A DNA stretch of 64,000 nt from a virus, in IMG/VR virus record IMGVR_UViG_3300027782_000032, positions 32,001 through 96,000 of that record; one strand, given 5' to 3'. Positions 14,407 to 51,799 of the stretch are shown piece by piece. The translations under genes were made by a program, and so were the position numbers. The notes below the pieces were generated by a model. That model ran no database searches. It saw only the letters and a list, made by a program, of their open reading frames with translations, and was not told the DNA's origin. Position 1 is the stretch's first letter. Every line of letters begins with the position of its first letter.

Positions 14407-15336
14407 TTACGCAAAGTCAACACGGGCAACTGCGTTGGTATTGCCGATGGCACCACCAAGAGTTTCATAGGCAAAGAATTCTAACATGTAGGCCTTTCGG
14501 TCCACATAAAGAGTTGTATCTTCAAGAATGAACGACTTGCCCAGGAACTTAGGATCAGCGAACATAAACACGCTGTCAGTAGGAACCAAGTCCTGCTTGA
14601 TGGAGATGATCCAACGAGCATTCATGAAGTTCTGTTCCGACCAGCCGTTTTTGAATACGTCCTGACTGAAGTCACCACCCATTTCCTCACGACCGAATTT
14701 CATCAGTTCGCGAATGGTAAGGTTGTTGACCAAGCAGGTACCTACTTCAAGTCGACTGATAGTTCTTGGAAGAATCTTGAAAGAGTCTTGCAAGGTGTCG
14801 CGGGTGATACCACCGTAGATGGTTTCCCACTGCACTAAGCCTGACTGAGTTACAGTAGTATCTGCAGCTCCGCCCATGGCAGCATTACAAGCAGCAATGA
14901 ATTTACGATCTTCTTCCGCTAACATATCCTTAATGGCATTATCCGAGAGGATCTGCCTGATATCCATGCGGTAAGTACGAAGTTCATCTACGTCCTTTGT
15001 GAATCGTGGGGTCACGATACGGTCAAAGGTTACTCGGTATTTCTGTCCACGAACATAAAGGTTCATAGGAAGAGTATTGAAAGGAATCGAGATTGCTGCT
15101 GGAGAATCAGGTTCACGTTCAATAATCTTTACAGGCTTATCAGTGTCGACTTGTTGATCAAGGTCGTCATTGCTGACCTGTACTGGTGGAAGAATTCTTC
15201 GGTAGAAGCCTTCTTCACGCATCCTGTACCTGGTGTAGTCGACCACTGCATCGAGTGCTCGCTTTTCCATTCCAGGAGTTTCAAGGTAGCTAAGGAACGT
15301 TTCGTTCGTCAGCTTAGTTTCATTATCGTAAGCCAT
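14407..15336 (-). CDS. Major capsid protein (HK97-fold, inferred)
   Basis: 309 aa downstream of protease/scaffold/decoration genes and followed by a terminator; EEDRKF and C-terminal ETLGGAIGNTNAVARVDF resemble capsid P-domain elements. Confidence 0.75.
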   Translation of the reverse strand: MAYDNETKLTNETFLSYLETPGMEKRALDAVVDYTRYRMREEGFYRRILPPVQVSNDDLDQQVDTDKPVKIIEREPDSPAAISIPFNTLPMNLYVRGQKYRVTFDRIVTPRFTKDVDELRTYRMDIRQILSDNAIKDMLAEEDRKFIAACNAAMGGAADTTVTQSGLVQWETIYGGITRDTLQDSFKILPRTISRLEVGTCLVNNLTIRELMKFGREEMGGDFSQDVFKNGWSEQNFMNARWIISIKQDLVPTDSVFMFADPKFLGKSFILEDTTLYVDRKAYMLEFFAYETLGGAIGNTNAVARVDFA

Positions 15337-22382: not shown

Positions 22383-22813
22383 TAGCCTACGTCGCTCCAA
22401 CCAGACAAGGCTATGTCCCAAGTAGCTGAACCAGTACCTGAAGGATGTATTTGAATATAGATCTTTCGCTTTCTATCAGACAATGGGCCATCGTAGTTCT
22501 TGTAAGCCTTGCCGTAATCGTCGATTATTGTTAGGAGCTCTCCGGATGTTCCAGAGGCCTGAGCAAATACTCTGTACAGCTCTTGATCTGCAGAGTAGTC
22601 TCCGCCAACCTCGTCACCACCAGAAGACGACCCGTCTAAAAACGCCTTCTTAGAGTTAAAGACATCAACAGTAAAGTTAACAAGTGCGCCGCCGCCCACT
22701 TGCTTTACTATGATTTTCTTTATGAAACCTTCAGAGAAGAACCCAAGCTCTAGCTGGGTGGTCTCGCCTTTAGGTGCGCTTATGCTTCTATAATGCTTTT
22801 CGTATATACGCAT
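22382..22813 (-). CDS. Hypothetical beta-rich protein
   Basis: 143 aa with SD GGAG; co-oriented and coupled. Confidence 0.55.
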   Translation of the reverse strand: MRIYEKHYRSISAPKGETTQLELGFFSEGFIKKIIVKQVGGGALVNFTVDVFNSKKAFLDGSSSGGDEVGGDYSADQELYRVFAQASGTSGELLTIIDDYGKAYKNYDGPLSDRKRKIYIQIHPSGTGSATWDIALSGWSDVG

Positions 22814-22824
22814 TTCTAGCTCCG

Positions 22825-25302: not shown

Positions 25303-25334
25303 TTACAGGTGATTATTATCAATAATGCTCTTAA

Positions 25335-25691
25335 TTATCTAGGCCGCATACTGAGAATATTTTCAGTTAAGCTTCCGCTCTTCATAAGCTCAAGCATGAC
25401 CTCTGCCATCTTAGCATAATTATTACCTTGGGTGTTAGTGGAGACGTCTCCACTACTTTGAGCCACTGCTGCTGCTTGATTTGACACAGGCGGCAGCATC
25501 GTAGAAGGGGCCATAAGAGCTGGCGAAGTGTTAACGTTCTTTACATCTTGAGGTGATGGTTTTTCTGATTTTGCTGCAGATAAAGATGGTGAAGCCCCTG
25601 CAGAAGGAATGGTGGGAGCAGTCAATGGCTTTAAAGCTGAAGGCTTACTAGGCTGACCCATGTTAGCCCACTTGTGTATAAAGTCGCTCAT
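25335..25691 (-). CDS. Small Pro/Ser-rich hypothetical protein
   Basis: 118 aa, coupled to the stop of the RNAP beta'-C gene. Confidence 0.55.
   Translation of the reverse strand: MSDFIHKWANMGQPSKPSALKPLTAPTIPSAGASPSLSAAKSEKPSPQDVKNVNTSPALMAPSTMLPPVSNQAAAVAQSSGDVSTNTQGNNYAKMAEVMLELMKSGSLTENILSMRPR
25436..25455. repeat. Dispersed palindrome copy 4 (20-bp perfect: TAGTGGAGACGTCTCCACTA)
   Basis: Core at 25438-25453; encodes SGDVST. Confidence 0.95.
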
Positions 25692-27610
25692 TATAAAACT
25701 CCGTCATTTTCAATTGGTTTAAGTATTTCACTCTTAGGTTTTTCTACTTTAAATCCTTTTACTGGACCGCTCTTACCAAAGTCTACAGCCTTGGCTAATG
25801 ACGGCACATAGGACGTGCCCTTCTCGTCGCTTACCGCACCACGATGCACGGCATTTAAAGTTGACTTTCTAAGATTGCTTCCAAGCATTCTAGTCATCCA
25901 GTCTGGGTCATGCTGAAGGTTTTCCAAACCCCTAACGAAGTGAGCTTCAAACGGAGCAGGGTCTTTGTGAACAGTAATCTTAGAGACACCAAACTCATTT
26001 AAGTCTTTTATCATAGAAGGCTTGATAGGAGTCCCTATACTGTAGTGCAGCACGGGCTGCTCAAGGTATTTACCAATAGCTTCTCTTGGATTTACTATGG
26101 TATGTCCTTCTCTAGGTTCCCAATCGTGTTCTACCGAGTCATAAGGTACGACGTCGTCTGGAGCGTACTGCTTGTACTCATCGCTCATCTTGACGTGATT
26201 GATAAGGCCTTTCGACATGACTTCTATGTTGCGTCTGTTTCCAGACATGCCTGCGCCTTTCATGGCTCCTTTAAAGGCTTGTACAAACTGACGCCTACCT
26301 TCACCTATTCCTTTGAACCTAGTAAGCATAGCAGGGTTGGCAATACCGTCAGACAATGTGTCCCCAGCCTCTACTACATCGTTAAGCTTCACAGACAAGT
26401 TTACTCCAGGGTTTACGTGGTGCTCAACTCCGTCTATCGCTATGAATGTGCCACCTGTAGGAGCTTCTTTAATTCCAGTAACCTTACCATCACGCTGAGC
26501 ATGAGCTGCCCAGTAAGGAGACTGCTTAGGTGATTGAACAAGCTGGTTTAAGTGTTTAAAGCCTGAGACTGCCCCAGCTGCTCCAGCTACTCCACCTGTG
26601 TGCTTAGAGCTTAGCTGACCTTGAGAAATAGGCTCGGATAGAGCTTGCATAGCGGCAATACCTATGGCGTCGCCTATTGGAGCAAAGCTGCCTCTTTCCC
26701 TTATGCCTAAATCTCTAGAGTATAGCCCTCCGTCAGGAGCTCCAGTTGCTATAGGGCTTCTTACTAAGAGCCTTTTTACGTTGTTAGCCTTTAAGTCTTT
26801 TATAACTCTAGGTGTAAGCACGGTGTTTCTAGCATAGCCCCCAGCTGCCATAGCTAGAAGCGCGCCTTCGTTATCATCATCCTCTATGTCTACAGGAAGT
26901 CCACGGCTTTCAAACCGTTTAGGATCGTCAGCGTCGTCACCTACGACAACCATTCTATGACCTATCTGATTTAGCTGTTTTGAAAAGAATCCAGCGTCCA
27001 TTGTTGCGAACTTAGTATCAGCAACTCCTTTACGGGCACCGAATGCTCCAGCAAAGTACTCAGCAGGATTTAAGCCTTTAGAGTATGAGTTGAACACAGG
27101 AATGGGAATAGCATTATCGTGATGATCGGTGTAGAGTAGATCTCCACCTCTAAGGCTTTTAAGGTTCATCGGCTTACCACGCGACCCTGACTGAATCTGT
27201 CTAGCTAGCTGGTTACCTTCTCGTAGTGAGTCATCAAATATGCCTTTTTCCATACCGCTTTGAGCATTGTTAAGCAGCTCAATCATACTACTATTTTTAG
27301 TGTCTTCATCTATTCTAGAGTTTCTCATTATTCCATCTATAGCTAGCTTTAGCTTAGCCTTAGCGTCTATAGAGTGATTAGACTCCCTTAGGTCTTTTAG
27401 TCCGAATGAAAATCCTCCACTGTTATAAGACACATCTCTACCGATATCAAAAAGCTTCTTTGATATGTCTTTGTACTTCTCTGGATGATTTTGAGCTATG
27501 ATCTGCATAAGCGAAGCAGAAGCTTTTGAATCTAAAGATCTGGTGTAATCTCTTAGCTCTGCAGGAAGGGCGTCGTTAACCATGATCTGACCTATGGTGG
27601 TCTTAAGCAT
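25691..27610 (-). CDS. rpoC: Multisubunit RNA polymerase, C-terminal half of beta' (bridge helix, trigger loop)
   Basis: SGSRG; GLNPAEYFAGAFGARKGVADT...AGFFSKQL (bridge helix); GDAIGIAAMQALSEPISQGQLSSKHTGG (trigger loop). Confidence 0.93.
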   Translation of the reverse strand: MLKTTIGQIMVNDALPAELRDYTRSLDSKASASLMQIIAQNHPEKYKDISKKLFDIGRDVSYNSGGFSFGLKDLRESNHSIDAKAKLKLAIDGIMRNSRIDEDTKNSSMIELLNNAQSGMEKGIFDDSLREGNQLARQIQSGSRGKPMNLKSLRGGDLLYTDHHDNAIPIPVFNSYSKGLNPAEYFAGAFGARKGVADTKFATMDAGFFSKQLNQIGHRMVVVGDDADDPKRFESRGLPVDIEDDDNEGALLAMAAGGYARNTVLTPRVIKDLKANNVKRLLVRSPIATGAPDGGLYSRDLGIRERGSFAPIGDAIGIAAMQALSEPISQGQLSSKHTGGVAGAAGAVSGFKHLNQLVQSPKQSPYWAAHAQRDGKVTGIKEAPTGGTFIAIDGVEHHVNPGVNLSVKLNDVVEAGDTLSDGIANPAMLTRFKGIGEGRRQFVQAFKGAMKGAGMSGNRRNIEVMSKGLINHVKMSDEYKQYAPDDVVPYDSVEHDWEPREGHTIVNPREAIGKYLEQPVLHYSIGTPIKPSMIKDLNEFGVSKITVHKDPAPFEAHFVRGLENLQHDPDWMTRMLGSNLRKSTLNAVHRGAVSDEKGTSYVPSLAKAVDFGKSGPVKGFKVEKPKSEILKPIENDGVL

Positions 27611-27612
27611 GA

Positions 27613-27831
27613 TTAAGCTCCTATGTTTATTTTCTTAACAATAGGAGGATTAATTCCATATTGCCTTAATATTTCTGTAAAACCATTATCTGCAGCTGTG
27701 TAGCAGATAATGGTGCTGTTTGGATTCTCTAGAAACAAGGCTATAGGATTACTGTCTTTATCGTAAACAACTATCCTTGTAGCTTTAACAACTGGACTAA
27801 CATCAAACAAGTTGTGGTAATCAAGAAACAT
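27613..27831 (-). CDS. Small hypothetical protein
   Basis: 72 aa filling the gap between co-oriented genes. Confidence 0.5.
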   Translation of the reverse strand: MFLDYHNLFDVSPVVKATRIVVYDKDSNPIALFLENPNSTIICYTAADNGFTEILRQYGINPPIVKKINIGA

Positions 27832-27835
27832 GATA

Positions 27836-28492
27836 CTAGTCTTTCTTAAGTCTTAGTAAATGAAGAATGCCTGCTGCCTTTTCACTTACGCTGAAGTTGT
27901 CAGCCGCTGTCTTCATAGGCTGAGCTCCTTGACTTGGAGCACCGCTTGGACCTTGCTGTTGTCCGTCAGAGCCCTGCTGCCCCTTAGGGTCATCAAGAAT
28001 ATCATGAGGCAAGTTAAGCCCTAAGGATGAGTAAAGATGAGTCATGAGCTTTTGAATGCGGTGCATGTACACCTCAGTCTGAGCTCCGTCATTCTTCTTT
28101 GCAGCTCCCTTACCGCCGCCTTTAGCCTCAGCCATAGCTCGCTGCATTTCGTCTTTTACAACTGACCTGATTTGTTCTGTAGGATCAGGAGGAGCACCGC
28201 CCATAGAAGGGTCCATAGGAGGGGCACCACCAGCAGCGGCTGGGTCCATAGGAGGAGCACCACCAGCCATAGCAGGATCCATTGGAGGGGCACCACCGGC
28301 CATAGCTGGGTCCATAGGAGGAGCACCGCCAGCCATAGCAGGATCCATTGGAGGAGCTCCTTGTGGAGGAGCGCCGCCCATAGAAGGATCCATTGGAGGA
28401 GCGCCTGGAGGAGCCCCTGCTTGTTCTGGAGGCATGAATGCCTGCTTGACTCTAAGCTGTGCCTGCTTCAAAAGATACTTATTGATAGCCAT
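27836..28492 (-). CDS. Pro/Gly/Met-rich repeat protein
   Basis: 218 aa; tandem GGAPPMDPAMA-type repeats; LKQA, VKQA, MKTAA motifs. Confidence 0.65.
   Translation of the reverse strand: MAINKYLLKQAQLRVKQAFMPPEQAGAPPGAPPMDPSMGGAPPQGAPPMDPAMAGGAPPMDPAMAGGAPPMDPAMAGGAPPMDPAAAGGAPPMDPSMGGAPPDPTEQIRSVVKDEMQRAMAEAKGGGKGAAKKNDGAQTEVYMHRIQKLMTHLYSSLGLNLPHDILDDPKGQQGSDGQQQGPSGAPSQGAQPMKTAADNFSVSEKAAGILHLLRLKKD
28181..28435 (-). repeat. In-frame ~33-bp tandem repeats (GGAPPMDPAMA)
   Basis: About six imperfect 11-aa units; related units at 16574-16672. Confidence 0.85.
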
Positions 28493-28512
28493 GTTGATTA
28501 CCTTATTTATTA

Positions 28513-29061
28513 TTATCGAGGTTCTGCGTCTAACGCTGGCATGTTGACCTGCTTATTTTGCAAGTTATACTTTTCGTATGGGTCTAAGTAGCTGTGGGCT
28601 AGGTTTACTGGAGGAGCAATGTAATCTGAAGCATTATTAACATTACCTGACAAGTACATATCTCGGTCAGCACCTGTACGGCCCATGCCAAGTCTAATTG
28701 CGGCTTCATTAATACCGGCGCCGCCTAAGGCACCGACACCGCCACCAGCAAGAGCACCGCGGCCAAGTCGGCCAAGAATGCCTACGCCTTTCTTTCGTTT
28801 ACCAAAAAGAGCGTTGCCTATGCCGCCAACGCCAGCGCCTACGCCACCACCCAAGATAGCTGCTTGAGCTGTTGGATCAAGCCCTTTGTAATAATCTAAA
28901 GCGTTGTTACCAAGACCTTTTAACCCTGACATTGCGCTGTCACCAAGGCCTTTAAGGCTGTCCATCATGCCTTCGCCAATTGCTTGTTTTACAAGCATGC
29001 CGTTTTTACGACCTAGATAAGCAGCAAGTTTAGTTGATCGTTCGATTCTAGCGAAGTCCAT
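28513..29061 (-). CDS. Glycine-zipper protein, putative ejection protein
   Basis: ILGGGVGAGVGGIG and GALAGGGVGALGGAG; N-leader TKLAAYLG...VKQA. Confidence 0.5.
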   Translation of the reverse strand: MDFARIERSTKLAAYLGRKNGMLVKQAIGEGMMDSLKGLGDSAMSGLKGLGNNALDYYKGLDPTAQAAILGGGVGAGVGGIGNALFGKRKKGVGILGRLGRGALAGGGVGALGGAGINEAAIRLGMGRTGADRDMYLSGNVNNASDYIAPPVNLAHSYLDPYEKYNLQNKQVNMPALDAEPR

Positions 29062-29141
29062 TTCACAATCTCCATGTGGTATATAGTAAAGCCGTTAGAC
29101 AAGTTTAACCTACGATTAATAGCTATTGCTATAGCAAATAG

Positions 29142-29780
29142 CTATCCTACCAGTAAAGGCGCAGCTCTCCTAAGCAATTCAGGTCTTAGAAGGCCGTAGT
29201 CTTTTAGTACTTTAGATGTAGCCAGTAAGTCTTTGTTATGGTTACCAGCACTGTAAAGACCCAGCGCTCCACCCATAGCTGCAGGAGCCAAAGTAGCTGC
29301 TATAGATGTTGACAGAGGCTGCCCTGTTAACCTACTAGCAAGAAGACCTCCAAGGCCACCTAAGCCTGCGTATCCAGCGGCTCTAAGTGTAGGATTAGCT
29401 CTGTGCTTTGAGAAGTCGTACTTTTCAGAAGGGTCATCTTGAAGACGTCCTAGCATTCCACTTAGAGCAGGTCTGCTTATACCGTAGTTGTCCAAGTCTT
29501 CGTCAGTTGGATTAACCATGTTTCTAGCTTGGTCCATCATTGACATTGCTTCTGGCATTCTGTCAGGACCTGGCCTCATCCTTGTAGCAAGCTGCATGTT
29601 ACGAGCTGACTTCTCGGATGTTAGCTTATCCCAGTTTTTCTTGTCTGGGTAAGCTTCACTGCCTGGCTTGGCTGGAGGTGCTCCCCTTTTCTTTTTTGCT
29701 TGAACGTTAGCCCACAAGCCTGGGTTGCTCTCTGATGCAGCTGATTTAAAAAACAAATTATGCAGTCCTTGCAAGCTCAT
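29142..29780 (-). CDS. Glycine-zipper protein, putative ejection protein
   Basis: AAGYAGLGGLGGLLA and AAMGGALGLYSAG; FKSAA, EKSA; start refined to the ATG after GGAG. Confidence 0.5.
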   Translation of the reverse strand: MSLQGLHNLFFKSAASESNPGLWANVQAKKKRGAPPAKPGSEAYPDKKNWDKLTSEKSARNMQLATRMRPGPDRMPEAMSMMDQARNMVNPTDEDLDNYGISRPALSGMLGRLQDDPSEKYDFSKHRANPTLRAAGYAGLGGLGGLLASRLTGQPLSTSIAATLAPAAMGGALGLYSAGNHNKDLLATSKVLKDYGLLRPELLRRAAPLLVG

Positions 29781-29802
29781 AGTAGTCTCCAAAGTTTAAT
29801 AA

Positions 29803-29900
29803 CCCAGCTGAAAAGACTTCGTCGCTCTGACGCACTTCCGCTTCGAGCGTCGATTAGTCCCAGGAGAGTGCTAAAACAGGCCCTAGCCTTTCCAGCTAAG
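29803..29900 (-). ncRNA. Candidate structured cis-regulatory RNA (multibranch)
   Basis: 13-bp closing stem with 3 G-U pairs on the minus strand only; two internal stem-loops; ends ~12 nt before the next SD. Confidence 0.45.
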
Positions 29901-29911
29901 TACATATAATA

Positions 29912-31405
29912 TTACTCTTTACTTCCAATTTGTTTAAGTACATTTAGGAATTTTTCATTAAGTTTCTGCTTACGATTGGCAGCGTTGATCAAGTAGTCAT
30001 CTGTTGCAGGGATAGGGTCTGCACCTATACCTATATGACGCAGCAAAGATCTTAGTCTTCCTGGAGCAGTCCTAGCTATGTAACGTTCTATTGAAACTTT
30101 TCTGTCTTCTGGATCAAGATGGTCATGGCTGTCAAACCTAAGAGCTCGGCCTTCGCTCTGGCTGCTTCTAGCTGTATTCCAGTGAGGGTCAAGCAGTTGA
30201 ACTAGCTTGGTACCTTTAAACGACAAACCTTCTGTTCCTGCTGGACCTAGCAAAGCTACCTTAAGCTTATCGCTGTTGTAGTCGTCAACCAGTCTTTTAC
30301 GCTCTTTATCTGATAGTGCACCTGTAAACGAAGCTGCAGGAATACCTGCTCTGTCTAAAGCGGCTTGGTAAGGCGACAACCCTGCATCGATAAAGTTGGA
30401 GAAGATAAGAGCTTTGCCTTTAGGGTCTTTGTCTAAAAGCCCCTTAAGATTACCAAACGCTGTAGTAAGCTTTGGAGAATCATCGAAAGCTTTTTGAATG
30501 TCTTTGTTTTCTTTCATGAACGGAAGTGTTGAAAGCCCTACCTGCCTAAGCCCTGTCATAAAGCTAGACATTCTGCTTACTTCATCTTTTGTTAGAGGGT
30601 AGTTCCTCTCTAGCTTCCACCTAAGTACAGTAGGAAGCTGACCCATTATATGGCTGTTAAGGTCTGTCTGATCTCGGTTCATTTCTACGACTACGTCTTT
30701 GCGATTAACTTCAGCCTTGGGAGCTAGCGGTGCAAAGTAGTCTACCTTACCTTTTAGCTTGTCTTTAAGTTGCTGCTGATTAATTATCTCTGGCTCTGCT
30801 GGATCTGAGTTTAGAAGTCTGTTGTACCAAGTAGGACTGGCTGTGTCTTTTACATAAGTGTCTTCAAACTCATTCTTACTAACGTCCTCTCCTGTAAGTA
30901 TGTTATACGGCAATGTAAAGTCGCTAGGGTCATTTACCACTGGAGTGCCGGTAAGCATCACAACCTGTTTTGCTTTTCTAGCAGCCTCCATAAGGTTCTT
31001 AGCTTGAGCGGACGCTGGGTTTCTAAATCTGTGAGCTTCGTCTATTAGAATAGAGCCTGGGTTATCTATTGGTTTTCCAAGTGCTAGGCCGGTATGACTC
31101 ATGACGCTGCTAGGTGTTGCAGTGTCTTGGTCTATAAACTTCTCTTGCTCCTTGCGTAAGTTGTTACGTAAGGCAGCAGGAACTACAGCTGTGTAAGGTA
31201 TCTTTGACTCGTCTGCTGAAGCTAATCCGCTTAAAGTCTTACCAGAGCCAAGACTATGGTAAAGCAGCATGCGAGCTTTACCAGTTGTGTCTAGCTGTTT
31301 CTGTACCTTGTCCACTACTCCCTGCTGGTGTGGCTGCAGAGAGATATTAGGATTTAGATCGGCTTGTTTTGTGGAGACGTCTCCACTGTTGTACTCTTGG
31401 GTCAC
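29912..31405 (-). CDS. SF2 (SNF2-related) helicase/ATPase, similar to the poxvirus D6/D11 transcription helicases
   Basis: LLYHSLGSGKT (I), IDEAH (II), LTGTPVVN (III), LIFSNF (IV), AGTEGLS (V), DPHWN...QSEGRALRFDSH (VI). Confidence 0.85.
   Translation of the reverse strand: MTQEYNSGDVSTKQADLNPNISLQPHQQGVVDKVQKQLDTTGKARMLLYHSLGSGKTLSGLASADESKIPYTAVVPAALRNNLRKEQEKFIDQDTATPSSVMSHTGLALGKPIDNPGSILIDEAHRFRNPASAQAKNLMEAARKAKQVVMLTGTPVVNDPSDFTLPYNILTGEDVSKNEFEDTYVKDTASPTWYNRLLNSDPAEPEIINQQQLKDKLKGKVDYFAPLAPKAEVNRKDVVVEMNRDQTDLNSHIMGQLPTVLRWKLERNYPLTKDEVSRMSSFMTGLRQVGLSTLPFMKENKDIQKAFDDSPKLTTAFGNLKGLLDKDPKGKALIFSNFIDAGLSPYQAALDRAGIPAASFTGALSDKERKRLVDDYNSDKLKVALLGPAGTEGLSFKGTKLVQLLDPHWNTARSSQSEGRALRFDSHDHLDPEDRKVSIERYIARTAPGRLRSLLRHIGIGADPIPATDDYLINAANRKQKLNEKFLNVLKQIGSKE
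31371..31386. repeat. Dispersed palindrome copy 5 (perfect 16-mer)
   Basis: Within codons 7-12 (SGDVST) of the helicase gene. Confidence 0.95.
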
Positions 31406-31407
31406 GG

Positions 31408-34400
31408 CTACTCCACTATGACAACTTTGTCGTTGGCGTCTATCTCACCGGAACGGTATGCACGCATGGCATCAGCCTTAGTCTTGAAATAACGCTCAGG
31501 CCTCTTTGATGCTTCAGAGGTAGCTGTGTAAAGTCCGCCTTGATATTCATTCATCGGCAACTGGTGAACCTTGAAGTTCTTTACAGCAAATAGATTTCTA
31601 CTAGGAAGCATCTTCTCTATCGCATCCTTTACAGACTCATCAGTGGTTGGAACGTGATAGTTCATAGCGTCGCCATCGAAGTCGGCGCCAAACCCCTTTA
31701 CAATAATAGGAGGGACCTGAAGCGTACTACCCTTGACCAGCTTCGGCTTGAAAGCCATTACACCATATCGGTGAAGAACTGGGGCCCTAGTAATGATTAC
31801 TGGCCTTGCTTCCATCTCAGAAGTCATGGCATCCATAGCCATAGGGTCTTTCTTCTCTATCATTTCAGAGGCTTTAAATCTATCGACTCCTCTTTTTACA
31901 AGTCGTCGCATAATGAACGGCTTATAAACCGACCAAGCTCTGTCTTCAGGAAGACCTACTTGATCCATGTCCAAGTCTGGGTTAGGAGTAATAGCAGCTC
32001 GACCAACCATGTCTACGTTTGACGCAAGAAGCTTTCTCTGAAGAACGCCATACTTTGGATTGTCACCAAAGACTTGCTTTAGTATTCCCTTAACATTCTT
32101 CTGTTCTAGCTTTGGATTGGCGGAGTCTCCAAGTCCAGTAACTGCTTTAAATGAGTCGTATAAAGCTAGCCTGTGGTCTGACAGATTTGAAAAGCTCTTA
32201 GAAGCTTCTTTCATTTCATTGTTAGAGTCGATTAACTCCTTGTAAAGATAGTTAGCGTCTCCAACCATAGGCAACCCACTTTGTTGCATAACGCTTACAG
32301 GCCTGAACAAAGGAGGAAGCACTGGAACCTTGCTCATCATCCAGTCAGAAGGATGCATCTTAAGGCTCTGAGCTGTTTTAAGATAACCAAGCTTGCGCAC
32401 AGCTGTGTCACGATACGACTTCTTACCTGAGGCTATCTGAGCCCTAGCTTTTATAAGCTCTTGGTCAACGTTTATCTTTTTAAGGGCTGAGCTGATTGCT
32501 TCAGGTCCTTTAACACCGTTAAGCTCTTCCTTTCCAGAAAGAACGTCTCTAAACTTGTTCTCAGTAAGCCCTAGAATTCTTCTAATAGGCTCTTCCATGA
32601 CTGGGTTAGGCATAGATTCGTGCAGCTTAACGTGGCTCCACATAGTGCCGCCATGACCTCCTGTTAGCCTGTTATCAAAAAGGCCATCACCAGCAGGCTT
32701 CATTCCGTTTTCCCAGTCTACTGTATCTGATCTCTTAATTTCTCTATCACCGGACAGAGCGTCAACGTCTTTGTCGGTCATAGCCATAAGCTGTGTCTTA
32801 GATCCATTTCTAACTGGGTTGATTCCAGCTCCTTGAAGCTGAGCCATAAACTTTCGGTAGGTCAGCGGGACCCTTGGTATAGGTAAAGACTTTCCAGTCA
32901 TAAACGCTGCCCAGTAGTCGTCATTCTTCTGTCCCCTAATCGACCCAGCGTCCCTTAGAACCTCATGAGCACCATGAGATAGAAGTGCATTAACATCCAT
33001 AAGAGCCATGCGCTTGCTGCCTTCTTCTCCACCTTTTGCTGGAGTTTCCTCTGCAGTGTATCCGCTAGCTATACCGCGGCCTTGTCCTTTAGACTCTGAG
33101 GTATGGTGAAGCTTCATAAAGAACCTGTTACCAGTGAAGATGTTCTTTATCTTCTTACCTGATTCTGGGTCTTCGATGTCTTCCATGTCGCTAAGGTTGT
33201 TTTGCTTAAGCTCATTTATTGCAAACTCTGTAAGGTCATTAATGTTATCAAAGTCTTTTATAGCGTAGCGCTTTCCTGTCTTCTCAGCAACTTTTCCAAG
33301 AGCTGCCTCTACCATCTGGCTTGGATTGGTTCTAGTTATAACCCCTAGTGGATTAAGAAGTATTTCAAAAGGTCTACCTTGCGCGTCTCTAGGCATTTTA
33401 TCTTCTGGTATAACTGCAGCTATAACACCCTTATCTCCATACCTTCCAGAGAGCTTGTCACCTTCTTTCATCGGGTTAAGACTTTTAACAGTTACCGAAT
33501 ACCCCTTTTTAGTTTGAGCTATGTCAGTTACTATTCCTTCGTTCTCGTGATCCCATGTAGTTGTTGCGTTTGTAAACCCGTTACGTGATCTTCCAACCTG
33601 CTGATTATGGGCTCTTGACAGTATGTTAGCTTGTAAGATAAGTGGGTCACCTTTTCTTACAACTGTGCCAGCCTTTATAACACCGTTGTCATCCATGCCA
33701 GACAGGGCTTCCTTAGAGTACTCAGAAGGAAACAGAGTTAAAAAAGGCTTCTTTCCATGCTTTGAATCGTCGCCAAGCTCAGCCTCATGCTGGTACATAT
33801 GCTCTGACGTTAATCTCTTTGCTGCGCCTTCAGATATGACAATCGCGTCTTCAAAGTTGTATCCTTTGTAAGGTATGTACGCCGACCTTAGATTTGTACC
33901 TAAAGCAGCTGTACCTTTATCGTCAGTATAGTTAGACCTAGCCAATAGGTCTCCATTTCCAACTACATCTCCTACTTTTACGGTAGGCGTATTGTGCAAA
34001 AACGTCTTACGATTGAATGGAAGATTGTTGTAAATCTCTTTCTTATGCAGCTGTCCGTCATCACCCCTAATGTGTATCTCGTCTCCATCCACTTTTATAA
34101 CCTGTCCTGCTACGGTAGACCTTACAGCACCCATGTGGCCGCCATAAGATTCTTCATAAGACTTATCGTCTTCGTCTGGCATTCCCGATTGCACATAAGG
34201 AGATTCTGGGTTTTGAAGGGGTAGCGCCTGCGTAAGCATTCTAGCGCCCATCATAACTCTCTGGCCTTTAGTTGCGCTCTTAAGAGGAATCATGTTTGCT
34301 AAGTGGTTAAAGGAGCTTTCCATTCTTGGAAGCTCGTAGTTAACGTCTTTCCTGTCTACGTACTTGATCTTTCCGTTGACCAGTGCAGCTATCTTATTAT

Positions 34401-35865
34401 TGGTTTTGTCTGCCATTTGATTTGGAAAAGCTATTGCAGATCCTGCAAGCTCTTGAGGAGTTTTCCATGCGTCTTCTCCTGTATTGACGTCTCTAAAGCT
34501 ACCATAAACCTTTCCGTCTATGCCCTTACGAGAGTTGATAGCTATTCTGCTATCCACTCCAACCTTAAGAGACTCAGGAGTTAATAAAGGGTCTACAAAC
34601 CCGAAGTGAGATGGCTGCACATTACGAGCTTCTTCTGGCACTGATTGAAGAGAAGGTATACCACCCTCTCCAAGTCTACTAACCCTAGTTATCTGATTAA
34701 GCAAGTCGGCTGGGTTGACCTCTTCAAGAGGCTGACCAAGTCCGCTAGTCATAATAGCGCCATTTATCTGAGAGTCTAGAAACCCAGGAGCAAAAGAGCT
34801 TAGGTTCTTTTTAAAGCTGGCTTTCCATAGCAGCGGCCTCATTACTCTATGGGCTACCTTTACCCTTTCTGAAAATAGGTCTTCTGGCCCTATCATAGAC
34901 TGGTACGACATAGCGTCACGGTCGTCTGGATCTTGTTCTTTCCTATGAACTGCAAGCAGTTTTTTTGTAGCTGCTATGATAGAGTCTGCTGAAACATTGG
35001 CAAACGGGCTACCAAGTGTCCGTGAGTTAACCTCTGGGTCCATCTCCATCTTTGACATAGCCTCAATCACCGACTTCTTCCTGCTCTCAGGAGTGACTAC
35101 GTCGCCTGGCTTTGATTTAGCTATTCTGTTGAATATTTTATCAAGATGGCTTGGGTCGTCTGTATCAGCGTTGGCTTGGTATATTTCATTACCCCAAGCT
35201 TCTCTCAGCTGCTTGTCGCTAGCGCCCAAAGCCTTAAGAAGTGGAGTTATAGGAACAGAAGACTGACCGAATCCTATAGAAAAAACTCCTTTAGCTGGGT
35301 CAAGCGAGTATCTATGCGATGCGCCTTTTCCAGGCATTATGTTTGCGTGACTCTCTACGTCACCGCTATTTGTAACTCTTGTGAACACTCCAGGCTTAAG
35401 TCGCATCTGATTTGCCAGCGTGTACTCTGTGCCTTTTACTATAAACGTTCCCCTGTCTGTAAGATAAGGAACCTTGGCTAGAGTTGTTCTCTTAGAATCT
35501 AAGACCTCGCCTGTCTCATTATCTGTAAGGTTAAGAGTACCCTTTAGGCTTCTGCTAAGAGTGTTACCTTTTAAGATAGCTTCTTTCTGTGACTTAATTG
35601 ACTTAGTTTCTTCTTCGTCATTCCAGCCAACTTCAGCAATGCTTAAAGTGTGCCTTTGATTTACTAAAGGCTGAATGCCAGCTGCAGACGCTTGAACTCC
35701 TCCGAATATAGCAGCTCTAGTAGCTGCTACATCATCAAACCGACGCATGGTTGGCGGTGGCGCTACTGGCTTTAAAGGAGCCTTAGAACTAACCAAGCCG
35801 ACTGGCTTGCTTAGCGTCGGCTCTGGTATTAGGTTGTCTTCATCGTCTGAGAATATTCCAGCCAT
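31408..35865 (-). CDS. rpoB: Multisubunit RNA polymerase, beta fused to N-half of beta' (catalytic DFDGD)
   Basis: beta motifs GYNFEDAI, GDKLSGRYGDKGVI, ILLNPLGV, MKLHH; beta' motifs VPVLPPLFRP, LLASNVDMVGRAAI, ITRAPVLHR, GADFDGDAMNYHVP. Confidence 0.95.
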   Translation of the reverse strand: MAGIFSDDEDNLIPEPTLSKPVGLVSSKAPLKPVAPPPTMRRFDDVAATRAAIFGGVQASAAGIQPLVNQRHTLSIAEVGWNDEEETKSIKSQKEAILKGNTLSRSLKGTLNLTDNETGEVLDSKRTTLAKVPYLTDRGTFIVKGTEYTLANQMRLKPGVFTRVTNSGDVESHANIMPGKGASHRYSLDPAKGVFSIGFGQSSVPITPLLKALGASDKQLREAWGNEIYQANADTDDPSHLDKIFNRIAKSKPGDVVTPESRKKSVIEAMSKMEMDPEVNSRTLGSPFANVSADSIIAATKKLLAVHRKEQDPDDRDAMSYQSMIGPEDLFSERVKVAHRVMRPLLWKASFKKNLSSFAPGFLDSQINGAIMTSGLGQPLEEVNPADLLNQITRVSRLGEGGIPSLQSVPEEARNVQPSHFGFVDPLLTPESLKVGVDSRIAINSRKGIDGKVYGSFRDVNTGEDAWKTPQELAGSAIAFPNQMADKTNNKIAALVNGKIKYVDRKDVNYELPRMESSFNHLANMIPLKSATKGQRVMMGARMLTQALPLQNPESPYVQSGMPDEDDKSYEESYGGHMGAVRSTVAGQVIKVDGDEIHIRGDDGQLHKKEIYNNLPFNRKTFLHNTPTVKVGDVVGNGDLLARSNYTDDKGTAALGTNLRSAYIPYKGYNFEDAIVISEGAAKRLTSEHMYQHEAELGDDSKHGKKPFLTLFPSEYSKEALSGMDDNGVIKAGTVVRKGDPLILQANILSRAHNQQVGRSRNGFTNATTTWDHENEGIVTDIAQTKKGYSVTVKSLNPMKEGDKLSGRYGDKGVIAAVIPEDKMPRDAQGRPFEILLNPLGVITRTNPSQMVEAALGKVAEKTGKRYAIKDFDNINDLTEFAINELKQNNLSDMEDIEDPESGKKIKNIFTGNRFFMKLHHTSESKGQGRGIASGYTAEETPAKGGEEGSKRMALMDVNALLSHGAHEVLRDAGSIRGQKNDDYWAAFMTGKSLPIPRVPLTYRKFMAQLQGAGINPVRNGSKTQLMAMTDKDVDALSGDREIKRSDTVDWENGMKPAGDGLFDNRLTGGHGGTMWSHVKLHESMPNPVMEEPIRRILGLTENKFRDVLSGKEELNGVKGPEAISSALKKINVDQELIKARAQIASGKKSYRDTAVRKLGYLKTAQSLKMHPSDWMMSKVPVLPPLFRPVSVMQQSGLPMVGDANYLYKELIDSNNEMKEASKSFSNLSDHRLALYDSFKAVTGLGDSANPKLEQKNVKGILKQVFGDNPKYGVLQRKLLASNVDMVGRAAITPNPDLDMDQVGLPEDRAWSVYKPFIMRRLVKRGVDRFKASEMIEKKDPMAMDAMTSEMEARPVIITRAPVLHRYGVMAFKPKLVKGSTLQVPPIIVKGFGADFDGDAMNYHVPTTDESVKDAIEKMLPSRNLFAVKNFKVHQLPMNEYQGGLYTATSEASKRPERYFKTKADAMRAYRSGEIDANDKVVIVE

Positions 35866-35866
35866 T

Positions 35867-36934
35867 TTAGGCCTCTTCTGAAAGTTGTTCGTTAACGTCG
35901 CTTTTTGGAGTTAGAGTTTTTTTCTTTTTGTTTACTTTAACAGGAACAGGTACTGAGTAAATCGGCATGCCCTCAGATTGTCTTCTAGTTAAAAACTCAT
36001 TTAAATACCTCTGATGCTCAAGTTCCTCTGGATCGTTATTCTTAGCATGAGTGTACCCTGTGTTTGTGCCGATTGCTCCAGCTCCTAAAGCTAGAGCTCC
36101 TGCTAAACCTAAATACCCAGTTGCATAAGGTTTAACAGCTGTAAAAGCTTGACTTCCTAAGTTTTTAAGATCTTCAAGTGTAGGAAGCATATAGTTTCCT
36201 ACTGCTGAGGCTCCTTCCATAGCCTTATTACCGACATAGCTAAACGCGTTTTGTAATGGGCCTGGAGGAGCTTCTGCTTTCTTTTCTTTAGTAACATGCA
36301 AACATAAGCTAGCCAACTTTTCTAAATCTTGAGCTAGTGTAGTAGACTTAGCTTCTGCTTTTTTTTGACCAAAGAACCCAGGCTTACCGGTTGCTTTAAC
36401 AGGTTCAGGCAGCCTGTTTGAATGAGCTTCTACTAAAGCCTCTCCAAACTCACGCTTAGCATCTTCTAACTCTTGAGCAGCATCTCTTTTTCTTTTTTCT
36501 CTAAATAGGTGATTAATAACTCCGTATCCTGTTCCTAGGCCAGCACCTGTAGCTGCAACTAGAGCAGGGGCATAGGCCATATTAGCCAAGTCCTCTGTTT
36601 TCCACTCTGATTGCTTTTCATTTTCTGTGTCTTTTATAGATACACCACTCCCTGGGCTAAATGGCTTATACTTACTACCCTTACCCCTTGCCTTACGCGC
36701 TTGTCTTTTTTCAACATTGTAAGAGGCTCCAGGTAAGGCCTCCTGCCCAGGAACGGGCACTTCTATAGTGTTGTTTCCAGGAGTGCCTGTACTAAACGCT
36801 TTGTTGTCTAAGCCACTATTAAAAGAGTTAAGTAGATGTTTAGTTCCAGCAATACCGCCTCCAGCAAGTAAGCTGAATAGTCCTACTCTTTTTAGGTTGT
36901 CCCATTGATTGTCGTCAAAGTATTGATCTGGCAT
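35867..36934 (-). CDS. Glycine-zipper protein, putative ejection protein
   Basis: Three Gly/Ala-rich hydrophobic segments; EKLAS, EKKAE motifs. Confidence 0.5.
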   Translation of the reverse strand: MPDQYFDDNQWDNLKRVGLFSLLAGGGIAGTKHLLNSFNSGLDNKAFSTGTPGNNTIEVPVPGQEALPGASYNVEKRQARKARGKGSKYKPFSPGSGVSIKDTENEKQSEWKTEDLANMAYAPALVAATGAGLGTGYGVINHLFREKRKRDAAQELEDAKREFGEALVEAHSNRLPEPVKATGKPGFFGQKKAEAKSTTLAQDLEKLASLCLHVTKEKKAEAPPGPLQNAFSYVGNKAMEGASAVGNYMLPTLEDLKNLGSQAFTAVKPYATGYLGLAGALALGAGAIGTNTGYTHAKNNDPEELEHQRYLNEFLTRRQSEGMPIYSVPVPVKVNKKKKTLTPKSDVNEQLSEEA

Positions 36935-37288
36935 TTAAGTTCTCCTGTTAGGTGCTAACTTTCCTTGAACGTCAGCCCACTCCATGTGAATACTAAGCTT
37001 CTTATCTTCTGAAATAATCTTAGTTCTGTCTATAATTACACAAGCCCTGTTAGCAGCTAAATCTCTAATTTTAGTATACTCTTTAAGTTCTTCAGGATCG
37101 CTAAGATCAAATATCTTAACTTTAACATCATACTGAAGCGGTATATTCTCATACTCTTCTTGAGTAGTGTTTGGAGCCATTGGGCCGCCTAGTATAGGAA
37201 AACCTTGAGAGGTAGTCCCAGACAGCTGTCTATATTTAACACCTACACCACCAAGCCCAAACTGATTTAAAATACTAGAATCTCTCAT
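36935..37288 (-). CDS. Hypothetical protein
   Basis: 117 aa, co-oriented, abutting its neighbours. Confidence 0.55.
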   Translation of the reverse strand: MRDSSILNQFGLGGVGVKYRQLSGTTSQGFPILGGPMAPNTTQEEYENIPLQYDVKVKIFDLSDPEELKEYTKIRDLAANRACVIIDRTKIISEDKKLSIHMEWADVQGKLAPNRRT

Positions 37289-37299
37289 ATTAGTCCTTT

Positions 37300-38187
37300 C
37301 TAATACCTAGTAACACCTGAAATTCCTCTGTCTCGTTCTCGTCTACGTTTAGCCATCTCCGTCTGTCGTTTAATAAGTGTTGCCTGCCTATCGTACTCGT
37401 TTGTAAGCTCCTCGTTTAACATCTCTTCTCTAGATGGAATAGGAGCCTTGGTTACGTTATGCAAACCTGGTCCAACTACTTGGTTTCCTAAGTAGTACCC
37501 GCCTGCACCCGCTGCTGTAAGGCCTGCCAAGCCTACAAGAGGAATAGAGCCTAGTTGTCCAAGAATACTAAGATCAAGAGCCCTCTTCTCTGCAAAGTAC
37601 AGAGCTTGTTTTACTCGTATCTTTATCTCATCAAGGTTGAGGCCTTCATCAATGCACTTGGCCAAGAAGGCTACTTTAAACATTTGCTTATCGTCCATCG
37701 CTGCTCCTTGCTTTCCTAGAGTAGGTTTGGTAGCTGCAGTAGGGGTTACAGTACCTTTGTTTAAATCTACAGAAGCCCCACCTTTAACTGGCTTTATAGT
37801 CTGACCAGACATTGCAGTCATAGGAAGTCCAGCTAATCCTGCACTGCTAGCGCCCATTAAAGACCCAGCAAACGAAGCTGCGTCAGCAGGAGCTACTCGA
37901 TTGGCTCCTAACTGGGCAGGAGGGGCGCTTGGCCCAACTATTGGAATAGACTTGTCTATAAGTTTATTGCTAAAAGAACTATCATTTAAAGGGTATCTAG
38001 CTACTGCTTCCCTAGTCTTAGCGTGAGCTGCTGAGTTAAATATTTCTTTTGTGTAATTTCTTTTAGAGGTTAAAAGATTCTGTGTGTTTACAGGTAGCTT
38101 ACCCCAGCCGTTGTAAGGCTCAGTAGGCTGCCTTCCTGGAGCTATAGCTTCTGCGTTAATCTGAGCTTGGGTCTTAACTGGAGGCAT
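37300..38187 (-). CDS. Glycine-zipper protein, putative ejection protein
   Basis: LVGLAGLTAAGAGGYYLG; EKRA motif. Confidence 0.5.
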   Translation of the reverse strand: MPPVKTQAQINAEAIAPGRQPTEPYNGWGKLPVNTQNLLTSKRNYTKEIFNSAAHAKTREAVARYPLNDSSFSNKLIDKSIPIVGPSAPPAQLGANRVAPADAASFAGSLMGASSAGLAGLPMTAMSGQTIKPVKGGASVDLNKGTVTPTAATKPTLGKQGAAMDDKQMFKVAFLAKCIDEGLNLDEIKIRVKQALYFAEKRALDLSILGQLGSIPLVGLAGLTAAGAGGYYLGNQVVGPGLHNVTKAPIPSREEMLNEELTNEYDRQATLIKRQTEMAKRRRERDRGISGVTRY

Positions 38188-38191
38188 GGTG

Positions 38192-38560
38192 TTATCCTAG
38201 TATGATTCCTGAGTTGGTTACACCCTTTGGTACGCTAGCTCCAGTTGACCAGATCTTTCGGTTGTCGTGTGCTAGCTGAGCAGCTACCTTTGGGTCTGTA
38301 GGGTCGCCCTGCTCTTTAGCTTCTTGAATACATAGCATAATGTCTCTAGCCGCTGCAATAATCTGAGTCTTCTCGTCTTGATGCTGAACTCTGGTAGACT
38401 CTTCAAACAAGGCTTTTGCTCGCCTTCTCATTACCGAGGTAGGCTCGACCTTATCAGATCCGTCTCTATTATCATGAATGTTTATGAGGCCACCTTCAGC
38501 CCAGAACTCAATCTGGTTGTATTTATATGTCTTCTTAATGATTAAAGCCGGAACGTCCAT
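38192..38560 (-). CDS. Hypothetical protein
   Basis: 122 aa with AAGGG SD-like site upstream. Confidence 0.55.
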   Translation of the reverse strand: MDVPALIIKKTYKYNQIEFWAEGGLINIHDNRDGSDKVEPTSVMRRRAKALFEESTRVQHQDEKTQIIAAARDIMLCIQEAKEQGDPTDPKVAAQLAHDNRKIWSTGASVPKGVTNSGIILG

Positions 38561-38620
38561 TTATTATCCCTTTCAGTTAAAACACAATACTACACTAATT
38601 TAAGCTTGTTGTCACTTAGC

Positions 38621-39940
38621 TTATTGACCAAAGAACCCAGGAACCACAGCTTTAAGTGCACCAGCCACAACACCAGCTCCCTGCAAAGTTCTTTGAGCCT
38701 GTGGAGTCAAGCCTACCAAAGCTCCTAATACTTTTCCACCCAAAGTAGCCTGAACATATCCAGCTCCCATGCCTATGCCAACCCTAGCTATGTCCATAGG
38801 AGTAATAAAGCCAGTGCCTCCTCCCATGCTGTTAGCTGCACTGACAACGCCCATAGTAGCTGCCTGCATATAAGGAGGAGAGAAAGGATCATTAAGAACA
38901 AGCCTATTGAAAGCGTCTACAGGCACAGGGGCTAGGCTTATTCCGCCTCCACCAAAGAAGTTAGATGACTTCTGCATCTCTTCAGATATCTCTGGCTGAA
39001 TCTGAGATAACGCTTCAGAAGCCTTAGTTATAGTTGAGTTTCCAAATATTACGTTTGGTGATGTGAAAGCTTTTATAGAGTTAGAATCCCTATCAGGATT
39101 GCTTTTAGCGTCCCAAGTGTGCATGCCTATTCCACCCATTGCAGCACCTGGAAGAGCACCTACAAGACCGCCTAGCATAGCCATTCTCTTTCTTAGCTTG
39201 CCCTTTTCAAATACTCCAGGGGCTATGTTCTCAGCTATGGTACCTGCTCCGTAGCCTAAGCCAGCAGTTAAGGCGCCACCAGCGATCATGGAAGCTAAAG
39301 GAGTAGGTCCACCTATATGGTCTGAGAACTTTGAAGGCTTAAGCATGAAGGCCTGAGCAACTGGACCAAGCACGCTAGACACCAAGGTGTCACTAGCACA
39401 CTTAACTAATATCCAAGGAGAGTTAAGGTTTGGCTTTCCAACCTTGTTGCTAACTCCTGCCTTCTCAAGAGTAGTGGAGACGTCTCCACTCTCGACAAGT
39501 ACTTTGTCAGATGTTGGACTGATCCACGCGTGCGTACGTGGTAAAAGAGCCCTAGCAACTTTTTCATAAACTTCTTTTGACGCTAAAACATAAGTATTTA
39601 CTAGGTCTGGAACGTAACTCCAAGCCAAGTCTTCAGCAATTTTATCCATCCGTTCTTGCCTCGAAATTGAAGAGGGGATAATATCCCTAGGAGCATGGAC
39701 CTTGAATGAAGTTGGAACGTGCGTTATCCCTACAAACTTTTTGTTAAGATCGGAATCTATGACAAAGTCTTCTGGCTTATCAACTAAAAGATTCCTCAAT
39801 ATTTTGTTCTTTTCATGATAGTTACGCTGATCAGACATCTGCTTGGCTCTAAGCAGCAGGTGAAGATCAGTCTTGGGATTGCGTTCTTCTTGAACTGGCA
39901 TTAGAAGGTCCTCCATCACGATAGTACCAACTCTTGGCAT
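38621..39940 (-). CDS. Glycine-zipper protein with several hydrophobic segments
   Basis: IAGGALTAGLGYGAG, LGGLVGALPGAAMGGIG, IGMGAGY...LGALVG. Confidence 0.5.
   Translation of the reverse strand: MPRVGTIVMEDLLMPVQEERNPKTDLHLLLRAKQMSDQRNYHEKNKILRNLLVDKPEDFVIDSDLNKKFVGITHVPTSFKVHAPRDIIPSSISRQERMDKIAEDLAWSYVPDLVNTYVLASKEVYEKVARALLPRTHAWISPTSDKVLVESGDVSTTLEKAGVSNKVGKPNLNSPWILVKCASDTLVSSVLGPVAQAFMLKPSKFSDHIGGPTPLASMIAGGALTAGLGYGAGTIAENIAPGVFEKGKLRKRMAMLGGLVGALPGAAMGGIGMHTWDAKSNPDRDSNSIKAFTSPNVIFGNSTITKASEALSQIQPEISEEMQKSSNFFGGGGISLAPVPVDAFNRLVLNDPFSPPYMQAATMGVVSAANSMGGGTGFITPMDIARVGIGMGAGYVQATLGGKVLGALVGLTPQAQRTLQGAGVVAGALKAVVPGFFGQ
39473..39490. repeat. Dispersed palindrome copy 6 (18-bp perfect: AGTGGAGACGTCTCCACT)
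   Basis: Core at 39474-39489; encodes SGDVST. Confidence 0.95.
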
Positions 39941-40019
39941 ACCAAGCCATAGTTGGATGCCGTTTGGATGAAATTATGTTTAAGGATGGACATATTAACA
40001 AACACGGAGGTTATAACCA

Positions 40020-49113: not shown

Positions 49114-49161
49114 AGTAACCTCCTTACTTTTATCTAGTCACCTAAAACTTAGTAAAGTAAT

Positions 49162-49944: not shown

Positions 49945-49954
49945 TTTATTCTCC

Positions 49955-50845: not shown

Positions 50846-50849
50846 AGTC

Positions 50850-50891
50850 TTATCTCCTATCGGTTTTTCTTTTTAAGTTTAGAAACAGGAG
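50850..50891. repeat. 42-bp exact direct repeat (tail codons, stop and SD), copy A
   Basis: Identical to 51758-51799. Confidence 0.9.
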
Positions 50892-51753: not shown

Positions 51754-51757
51754 ATTA

Positions 51758-51799
51758 TTATCTCCTATCGGTTTTTCTTTTTAAGTTTAGAAACAGGAG
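51758..51799. repeat. 42-bp exact direct repeat, copy B
   Basis: Identical to 50850-50891. Confidence 0.9.

Follow-up and report, generated by a model that had tools for sequence, protein, structure and literature searches.

Among the genes on a 64,000-nucleotide stretch of viral DNA (the window throughout this text) is a set encoding a bacterial-type RNA polymerase (RNAP) whose two chains contain no cysteine (Cys) and retain neither of the two zinc (Zn) sites of the bacterial enzyme. The window is drawn from a 92,955-bp IMG/VR virus record (IMGVR_UViG_3300027782_000032) that CheckV estimates to be ∼45% complete. Near-identical DNA was found in freshwater, runoff, and estuary metagenomes of many studies, although none of the public runs listed as carrying it is an RNA dataset, and the phage is a large, uncultured freshwater phage whose clade has genomes of ∼200 kb. 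The original prediction had labelled the two chains beta' and beta. These labels had to be corrected, as the Pfam domains identify the 1485-amino acid (aa) protein as a fusion of beta with the N-terminal part of beta' (beta-beta'N) and the 639-aa protein as the C-terminal part of beta' (beta'C). The genes for the two chains and for an associated ATPase, together with the catalytic motif, are as follows.

31408..35865, minus strand: RNAP beta-beta'N fusion, 1485 aa, 0 Cys (Pfam Rpb2_3, Rpb2_6, Rpb1_1, and Rpb1_2; PDB matches; NCBIfam rpoB, rpoC, and rpoC1; Cys count)
31660..31689, minus strand: catalytic Mg-binding motif GADFDGDAMN, intact (aligned to NADFDGDQM of solved beta'/gamma chains)
25691..27610, minus strand: RNAP beta'C, 639 aa, 0 Cys (Pfam Rpb1_5; PDB beta' matches, E 1e-28; NCBIfam rpoC positions 548-1048)
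29912..31405, minus strand: SNF2/ResIII-type superfamily 2 (SF2) ATPase, here called the helicase, 497 aa, 0 Cys (PF00271 Helicase_C, PF04851 ResIII, PF00176 SNF2-rel_dom; phrog_62 DNA helicase)

The fusion protein shows beta homology up to approximately residue 1040, and beta' begins at approximately residue 1042. Its beta' portion amounts to the N-terminal 40% of that subunit and stops near E. coli beta' residue 546, not far from the point at which the cyanobacterial gamma and beta' subunits (rpoC1/rpoC2) are split. The beta-to-beta' order, as in the Helicobacter-type rpoBC fusion, matches the NCBIfam beta/beta' fusion models. Within the beta part, PF00562 (Rpb2 domain 6, the double-psi barrel region) was matched at E 2e-49 and PF04565 was matched as well. 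The solved chains that match best in the PDB are B. subtilis beta, at E 8e-74, and, at E 8e-50, beta' or the cyanobacterial gamma subunit. The set of beta and beta' domains is complete, as in bacterial rpoB/rpoC, and the catalytic motif is present. Only beta/beta' domains were matched with Pfam and NCBIfam, and no single-subunit, T7-like polymerase domain of the N4-like kind was detected. Judged by this core homology, placement in the bacterial-type multisubunit RNAP family stands despite the missing Zn domain described below.

Among cultured phages, Salmonella phage Arash and Vibrio phages D69, D148, and D181 are the nearest, at ∼25 to 34% identity; no cultured member of the window's own clade was found. 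All four share the architecture of the window, namely a beta-beta'N fusion, a separate beta'C, an SNF2 ATPase, and a sigma-like factor. The helicase has both lobes, an N-terminal ResIII/SNF2 ATPase and a Helicase_C domain, and is the ortholog of Arash Gp217 (34% identity, E 2e-62), although its gene lies between the fusion and beta'C genes in the window and after beta'C in Arash. Pfam Sigma70_r2 matched no sigma factor in the window's genome or in the complete relatives; the sigma-like gene was located via Arash Gp10 instead. Its product is a 275-aa Cys-free protein encoded just outside the window (L003:8255-9082:+), in which Sigma70_r3 scores above the Pfam cut-off and RpoD/FliA/SigB matches at residues 100 to 270 (E 1e-9 to 1e-5) fall below theirs. 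No alpha homolog was found by PF01000 in five complete relatives, the window's own genome being ∼45% complete. Because each of the complete relatives (∼205 kb, with terminal repeats) has one beta-type gene, this is a single-RNAP lineage, unlike phiKZ.

Cysteine content and the two zinc sites

The original prediction held that the 1485-, 639-, and 497-aa proteins contain no Cys, and residue counts of the ORFs (open reading frames) bear this out. The Cys background in the rest of the genome is 1.10%, which gives a probability of 2.4e-13 of finding no Cys in 2621 aa. The Cys-free run exceeds the three enzymes, as four further ORFs (118-218 aa) within the span 25335 to 35865 also lack Cys. Taken as a whole, the twelve-gene block at 25335-39940 has 6 Cys in 4755 aa (0.13%), compared with 81 Cys in 7799 aa (1.04%) in the adjacent structural genes (1173-25302; Fisher p = 4e-11), and cytoplasmic enzymes of the same genome have 1 to 4% Cys. 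Methionine (Met), in turn, is enriched (3.2% versus 2.3%) and therefore the avoidance is specific to thiols rather than directed at oxidizable residues generally. Mutational supply for Cys is ample, with 444 of the 2621 codons in the three genes (∼17%) one mutation away from a Cys codon.

Four positions in the two RNAP chains illustrate what became of the bacterial Cys residues.

32632..32685, minus strand: junction at the deleted beta' N-terminal Zn domain, GLFDNRLTGGHGGTMWSH, fusion residues 1061-1078 (alignment; E. coli C70/C72/C85/C88 absent)
26924..26944, minus strand: VGDDADD, position of the first ligand of the second zinc site, Zn-II (E. coli C814, 'DDC'), here Ala (alignment; DC in Arash and in D69)
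26705..26761, minus strand: former Zn-II knuckle, now RSPIATGAPDGGLYSRDLG, beta'C residues 284-302 (E. coli C888/C895/C898 replaced; loop 3 residues shorter)
34588..34608, minus strand: beta motif HFGFVDP (alignment; E. coli beta C559 replaced by D)

The N-terminal Zn domain of beta' had been described as deleted; indeed, the alignment to solved beta' chains runs to DGLF and then skips ∼65 residues. At the second site, the replacement motif quoted in the original prediction is present and the Cys ligands are gone, with the Thermus beta' segment aligning to RSPIATGAPDG---GLYSRDL in the window's beta'C. The third replacement it listed, HFGFVDP where bacteria have HYGRVCP, is found at fusion residues 420-426. 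When the comparison is extended to every Cys of the E. coli enzyme, each of the 22 positions (7 in beta and 15 in beta') has been either substituted or deleted, C70/72/85/88 and C814/888/895/898 among them. Relative to the bacterial RNAP core, the window enzyme thus has no Cys, neither Zn site, and no ∼65-residue beta' region around the Zn domain, and no alpha homolog accompanies it in the complete relatives. An AlphaFold2 model of beta'C, built with 25 natural orthologs, reached a mean predicted local distance difference test score (pLDDT) of 58.5. The score stayed below 50 over the former Zn-II region (285-348), and the model is uninformative on folding without zinc.

Conservation in the window's clade and in its sister clade

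To the check that the original prediction had proposed, Cys counts across relatives, the answer is that orthologs do not commonly retain Cys. For the fusion protein, the 120 best homologs (54-99% identity) were examined. No Cys is present in 100 of these, and a further nine have one or two at scattered positions. The remaining 11, all longer than 1800 aa, have 4 to 16 Cys each, and all 88 of these Cys lie within intein inserts. The exteins of these 11 proteins contain no Cys, and in every case Ser or Thr serves as the +1 nucleophile. The beta'C comparison used 150 cluster representatives (clusters at 50% identity) with at least 44% identity. The RNAP part of these proteins contains 0.088% Cys, mostly as intein-boundary residues, in comparison to 1.87% in the intein inserts, and the disordered C-terminal tails of beta'C relatives have 0.04% Cys over 63,165 aa. 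Among the helicase homologs, 107 of 120 have no Cys and three with 7 to 11 Cys carry inteins. The sigma-like orthologs lack Cys in four of five complete relatives. The unmatched flanking ORFs in 40 IMG/VR loci have 1.34% Cys. These data show that the absence of Cys is maintained by selection.

The same set of relatives yielded observations on the inteins and tails themselves. Inteins are frequent in the fusion, beta'C, and helicase genes of the clade (P0022, P0026, P0036, P0037, P0040, P0041, P0046, P0055, P0102, P0120, and P0121; many of P0123-P0272; P0331, P0366, and P0373). Their sites recur at fusion residues ∼431, 620, 805, and 845 and at beta'C residues ∼201-210, 322, and 334; they mostly begin with Cys ('CYD...'), and the next extein residue is always Ser or Thr. 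In many relatives (P0123-P0272), beta'C carries a disordered tail of 400 to 1600 aa that is rich in Gly, Ala, Pro, Gln, and Thr, and the tail of P0269 includes a NUDIX domain.

At the Zn-II columns, none of the 150 beta'C representatives has Cys. In place of the former site, the window's clade has a Gly-rich loop that is conserved, with R284, S285, P286, G290, G294, G295, D300, and G302 invariant.

The Arash and Vibrio-phage proteins differ at this site. One and two Cys are present in their fusion proteins, and Arash Gp206 and D69 0261 show the same Cys-free junction at the deleted N-terminal Zn domain as the window fusion. The beta'C proteins of Arash and D69, however, have exactly four Cys, which are the four Zn-II ligands, while the window's clade has none. 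When 120 homologs of Arash Gp216 (51-100% identity) were compared, every one (120/120) had Cys at all four Zn-II columns, and their 72,993 residues contain just 7 further Cys. As read from these alignments, the sister clade is purged of Cys down to the four metal ligands. Since the N-terminal deletion is common to both clades and the Zn-II ligands are kept in the sister clade, the alignments indicate that the N-terminal Zn domain was lost first, before the two clades split, and that Zn-II was lost in the window's clade only. The loss of the zinc sites is best understood as the last stage of a general thiol purge rather than as the result of a direct requirement for an enzyme without metals.

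Neutral drift, or a compositional or mutational bias, was considered as a source of the Cys-free state and rejected, given the probability of 2.4e-13 and the persistence of the state in hundreds of homologs down to 44% identity. A bias acting on these genes would also have to spare the inteins inserted in them (1.9% Cys), would have to hold although 17% of codons are one step from Cys, and would have to leave exactly four ligand Cys in each of 120 sister-clade proteins. We give this explanation practically no credence.

Probable virion carriage and the avoidance of thiols

Evidence that such enzymes travel in the particle comes from Arash. Mass spectrometry coupled to liquid chromatography (LC-MS) of purified Arash virions detected the Gp206 fusion with 128 unique peptides and 3516 spectra, the highest of all proteins, along with the Gp216 beta'C (40 unique peptides, 1210 spectra), the Gp217 helicase (38 and 1148), and the Gp10 sigma-like factor (24 and 467). 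The corresponding values are 32 and 877 for the Gp204 portal and 30 and 1333 for the Gp226 major capsid protein (PMC10585845). The window helicase, the sigma-like gene, and one further ORF of the window are orthologs of Arash Gp217, Gp10, and Gp226, respectively.

14407..15336, minus strand: major capsid protein ortholog (31% identity, E 3e-37 to Arash Gp226)

The orthology of this ORF to Gp226 places the RNAP genes in the head module, where they share the strand of the capsid gene and of the orthologs of Arash structural proteins. The RNAP genes of Arash and D69 are likewise located in the head module. The original prediction envisaged a virion-packaged enzyme that is refolded without metals. 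Its first half gains support from the abundance of the orthologs in Arash virions. Its second half does not, as the Arash enzyme keeps Zn-II and the virion RNAP of phiKZ has 16 Cys.

Cys depletion in Arash extends to other virion proteins. Cys makes up 0.28% of those Arash proteins that were detected with 15 or more unique peptides, versus 1.23% of its annotated enzymes; the major capsid protein, the major tail protein, Gp4 (1097 aa), and Gp228 have none, and Gp229 has 2 in 2548 aa. This raises the question of whether Cys is avoided simply as all virion proteins are exposed to oxidizing extracellular (oxic fresh) water, with no connection to ejection or passage through the envelope. The Cys-free capsid and tail proteins of Arash agree with that explanation, as does the recovery of the DNA from freshwater, runoff, and estuary samples. 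In the window, however, Cys amounts to 1.04% in the other structural genes (1173-25302), with 2 Cys among the 309 residues of the capsid ortholog, compared with 0.13% in the RNAP block, and Met, which is also oxidizable, is enriched. We therefore regard exposure to water as an unlikely cause.

A parallel is found in the N4-like phages, and the precedent that the original prediction drew from the N4 virion RNAP is real: the virion RNAPs of N4-like phages contain no Cys, a feature that has been connected with their route through the tail and periplasm (PMC3715699), and Cys is suppressed throughout the Schitoviridae ejection operon (0.00075% versus a background of 0.865%; PMC11445570). In the window, too, the suppression is common to the RNAP genes and their block neighbors (0.13% versus 1.04-1.10%). 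In the N4 model, the enzyme is loosely folded in the capsid and refolds in the cell (PMC13434306), and by analogy the window enzyme may be unfolded, injected, and refolded. The N4-like gp50/gp71 is likewise a virion-carried polymerase for early genes, a likeness of function and not of homology. The N4 enzyme is a single-subunit T7-like polymerase of ∼3500 aa, whereas the window enzyme is of the beta/beta' type and its ancestors needed eight Cys for two zinc sites.

Taking these observations together, it is probable that the enzyme set is packed in the capsid and delivered with the DNA and that its thiols have been removed by selection, which we consider the best explanation. The enzyme would consist of the beta-beta'N fusion and the separate beta'C, working with the sigma70-like factor and the SNF2-type ATPase. 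The set would be made late alongside the head proteins and, in its most likely role, would then be packed into the capsid, enter the host with the DNA, and transcribe early genes there. Strong, continuing purifying selection would strip all Cys from proteins that take this capsid-to-host route, the likely reason being that thiols are prone to form disulfides, or to react in other ways, within the particle or, during delivery, within the envelope. Packaging in this phage, delivery through the tail, and this reason for avoiding thiols are what we infer.

Several observations weigh against capsid carriage as the cause, and they are best seen next to the jumbo phages. Phages of the phiKZ/AR9 type package and inject one RNAP set (PMC7598289), and their RNAPs have an associated Swi2/Snf2 helicase (PMC7824862). 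Like the window enzyme, the phiKZ/AR9 RNAPs are derived from beta/beta' and lack alpha and omega. They differ in that phiKZ has two paralogous sets of 4-5 chains each and no sigma, whereas the window's lineage has one set, a fusion, and a sigma70-like factor, and the window enzyme is far closer to bacterial RNAP. The phiKZ subunits were located by locus tag; Pfam RNAP models barely detect them. What we take to be the phiKZ virion set, helped by the 'structural head protein' notes in its record, has 16 Cys in 2614 aa (0.61%), compared with 33 in 2850 aa (1.16%) in the presumed non-virion paralog (p = 0.04). As the virion enzyme is only mildly depleted, packaging alone does not force a Cys-free enzyme. 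Similarly, the Arash enzyme detected in virions keeps its four-Cys Zn-II site, as does its clade in 120/120 cases, and therefore an enzyme without metals is not a requirement of packaging and delivery. In AR9 the N-terminal Zn domain is absent from the non-virion RNAP, whereas that of phiKZ keeps it (PMC7618050); the loss is therefore not specific to packaged enzymes. The Arash list of 116 'virion' proteins includes ribonucleotide reductase, and its authors caution on enzyme carry-over (PMC10585845), some of which is likely. The link between Arash and the window's phage is one of orthology, at ∼25 to 34% identity. Finally, the single RNAP of each genome must also work in the cell later, and there may be an intracellular reason for thiol avoidance.

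Such a reason leads to a different account, in which the enzyme is unpackaged in this clade and Cys and Zn were lost for independence of host zinc or for resistance to thiol-directed or oxidative host responses. One RNAP per genome means activity in the cell throughout infection, and the Zn-domain-free non-virion enzyme of AR9 and the Cys retained by the phiKZ virion enzyme fit this account. It conflicts with the rank of the orthologs among the most abundant Arash virion proteins, with the location of the genes in the head module amid Cys-free, low-complexity, glycine-zipper proteins, and with the 1 to 4% Cys of cytoplasmic enzymes in the same genome. We consider it improbable.

The capsid-delivery explanation also has a more far-reaching form, which we put forward tentatively and think rather doubtful. 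Here the complete initiation set (beta-beta'N, beta'C, sigma, and SNF2 ATPase) would be stored in the capsid, threaded through the tail in a loosely folded state, and refolded without structural metal, with the Cys-free glycine-zipper or disordered neighbors and the beta'C tails acting as the delivery apparatus. If true, the enzyme would be the first of the cellular-type RNAP family to do without zinc, and the N4 ejectosome would have a multisubunit counterpart.

No description of Cys or Zn loss in this lineage was found in the literature, and none is present in a study of RNAP-encoding Caudovirales (PMC7481178), a review of jumbo-phage RNAPs (PMC7598289), or a comparative review (PMC7824862). 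The Cys rule of ejected phage proteins is known; its extension to a bacterial-type multisubunit enzyme, up to the loss of both zinc sites, is new. The beta' N-terminal Zn-binding domain with four Cys is described as common to all multisubunit RNAPs (PMC7618050). Cellular-type RNAPs have been described as universally possessing this domain, and bacterial ones a second zinc site as well, yet a very large natural clade has neither, nor any Cys. The two clades form a natural series, with the sister clade at an intermediate stage, in which the purpose of the zinc sites and the replacement by a Gly-rich loop can be addressed. The data suggest that Cys scarcity is a simple sequence signature for predicting particle-carried, host-delivered proteins of uncultured phages. 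Moreover, a two-chain bacterial-type RNAP free of Cys and metal sites could suit labelling and in vitro work.

Neighboring genes and gene order

The remaining genes of the Cys-poor block are small to medium ORFs, which are listed with the basis for each assignment.

35867..39940, minus strand: five ORFs (355, 117, 295, 122, and 439 aa) with 1 Cys each, the upstream half of the Cys-poor block (three with glycine-zipper hydrophobic segments)
29142..29792, minus strand: 216-aa protein without Cys, containing hydrophobic segments of a glycine-zipper-like kind (confined to this phage and the close relative L006)
28513..29061, minus strand: 182-aa Cys-free, Gly/Ala-rich (32%) protein with a glycine-zipper segment (composition)
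27836..28492, minus strand: 218-aa Cys-free protein with (GAPPMDPAMAG)n repeats (conserved gene between fusion and beta'C in relatives)
27613..27831, minus strand: 72-aa ORF with 1 Cys, the sole Cys-bearing ORF between 25335 and 35865 (conserved in L006)
25335..25691, minus strand: 118-aa ORF, Cys-free and rich in Ala, Pro, and Ser, with its start at the beta'C stop codon (sequence)

Searches of these neighbors and of other large ORFs with Pfam and PHROGs matched almost nothing. The ORFs of 355, 295, 439, 216, and 182 aa (35867-39940 and 28513-29792) contain GxxxGxxxG/A segments, have 20 to 32% Gly+Ala, and match no known family. The composition of the block neighbors, which are rich in Gly, Ala, and Pro and free of or poor in Cys, would fit internal or ejected proteins. 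Of the 218-aa protein, 20 of 21 orthologs have no Cys. The 118-aa ORF may correspond to the start of the disordered tails that are fused to beta'C in relatives, which it resembles.

The gene order is kept down to 52% identity and consists of a small gene, an ∼300-aa gene, the fusion, a Cys-free gene of ∼220 to 260 aa, beta'C, and a protein of 800 aa whose Cys content is normal. This phage and L006 alone have an insertion between the fusion and beta'C, which comprises the helicase and two small genes. The last member of the order is represented in the window by an 825-aa protein directly after beta'C (22825-25302), which is syntenic in 29 relatives, has 0.9% Cys, and weakly matches Gp218, a structural protein of Arash. 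The Cys-poor block has its downstream boundary at this protein, with which a PDB sequence search gave no match. With regard to helicases in other virions, phiKZ gp203 (NC_004629: 210656-212767) is a DEAD/DEAH-box helicase annotated as a structural (virion) protein, and therefore a packaged helicase beside a packaged RNAP is not unique to Arash-like phages.

A scan of 22000-41000 for promoters and terminators returned promoter-like sites at chance level and weak terminator-like sites. Further Cys-free ORFs were noted elsewhere. The genome's largest Cys-free protein is encoded by a 1730-aa ORF with 0 Cys (L003:107-5299:+; window -4041 to 1151, running past the window start); it has no Pfam, PHROG, or PDB match and is a candidate internal or ejected virion protein. 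Cys-free ORFs of 302, 298, and 203 aa begin at 48205, 50857, and 53681 (within window 48205-54932). A 14-bp palindrome, TGGAGACGTCTCCA, occurs in 10 copies with 0-1 mismatch where 0.01 are expected, at window positions 2176, 10006, 18125, 25439, 31372, 39475, 48188, 53667, 55459, and 60763, with a spacing of ∼5 to 9 kb. Two of these copies lie between 25335 and 35865, one inside the 118-aa ORF after beta'C and the other at the 5' end of the helicase gene.

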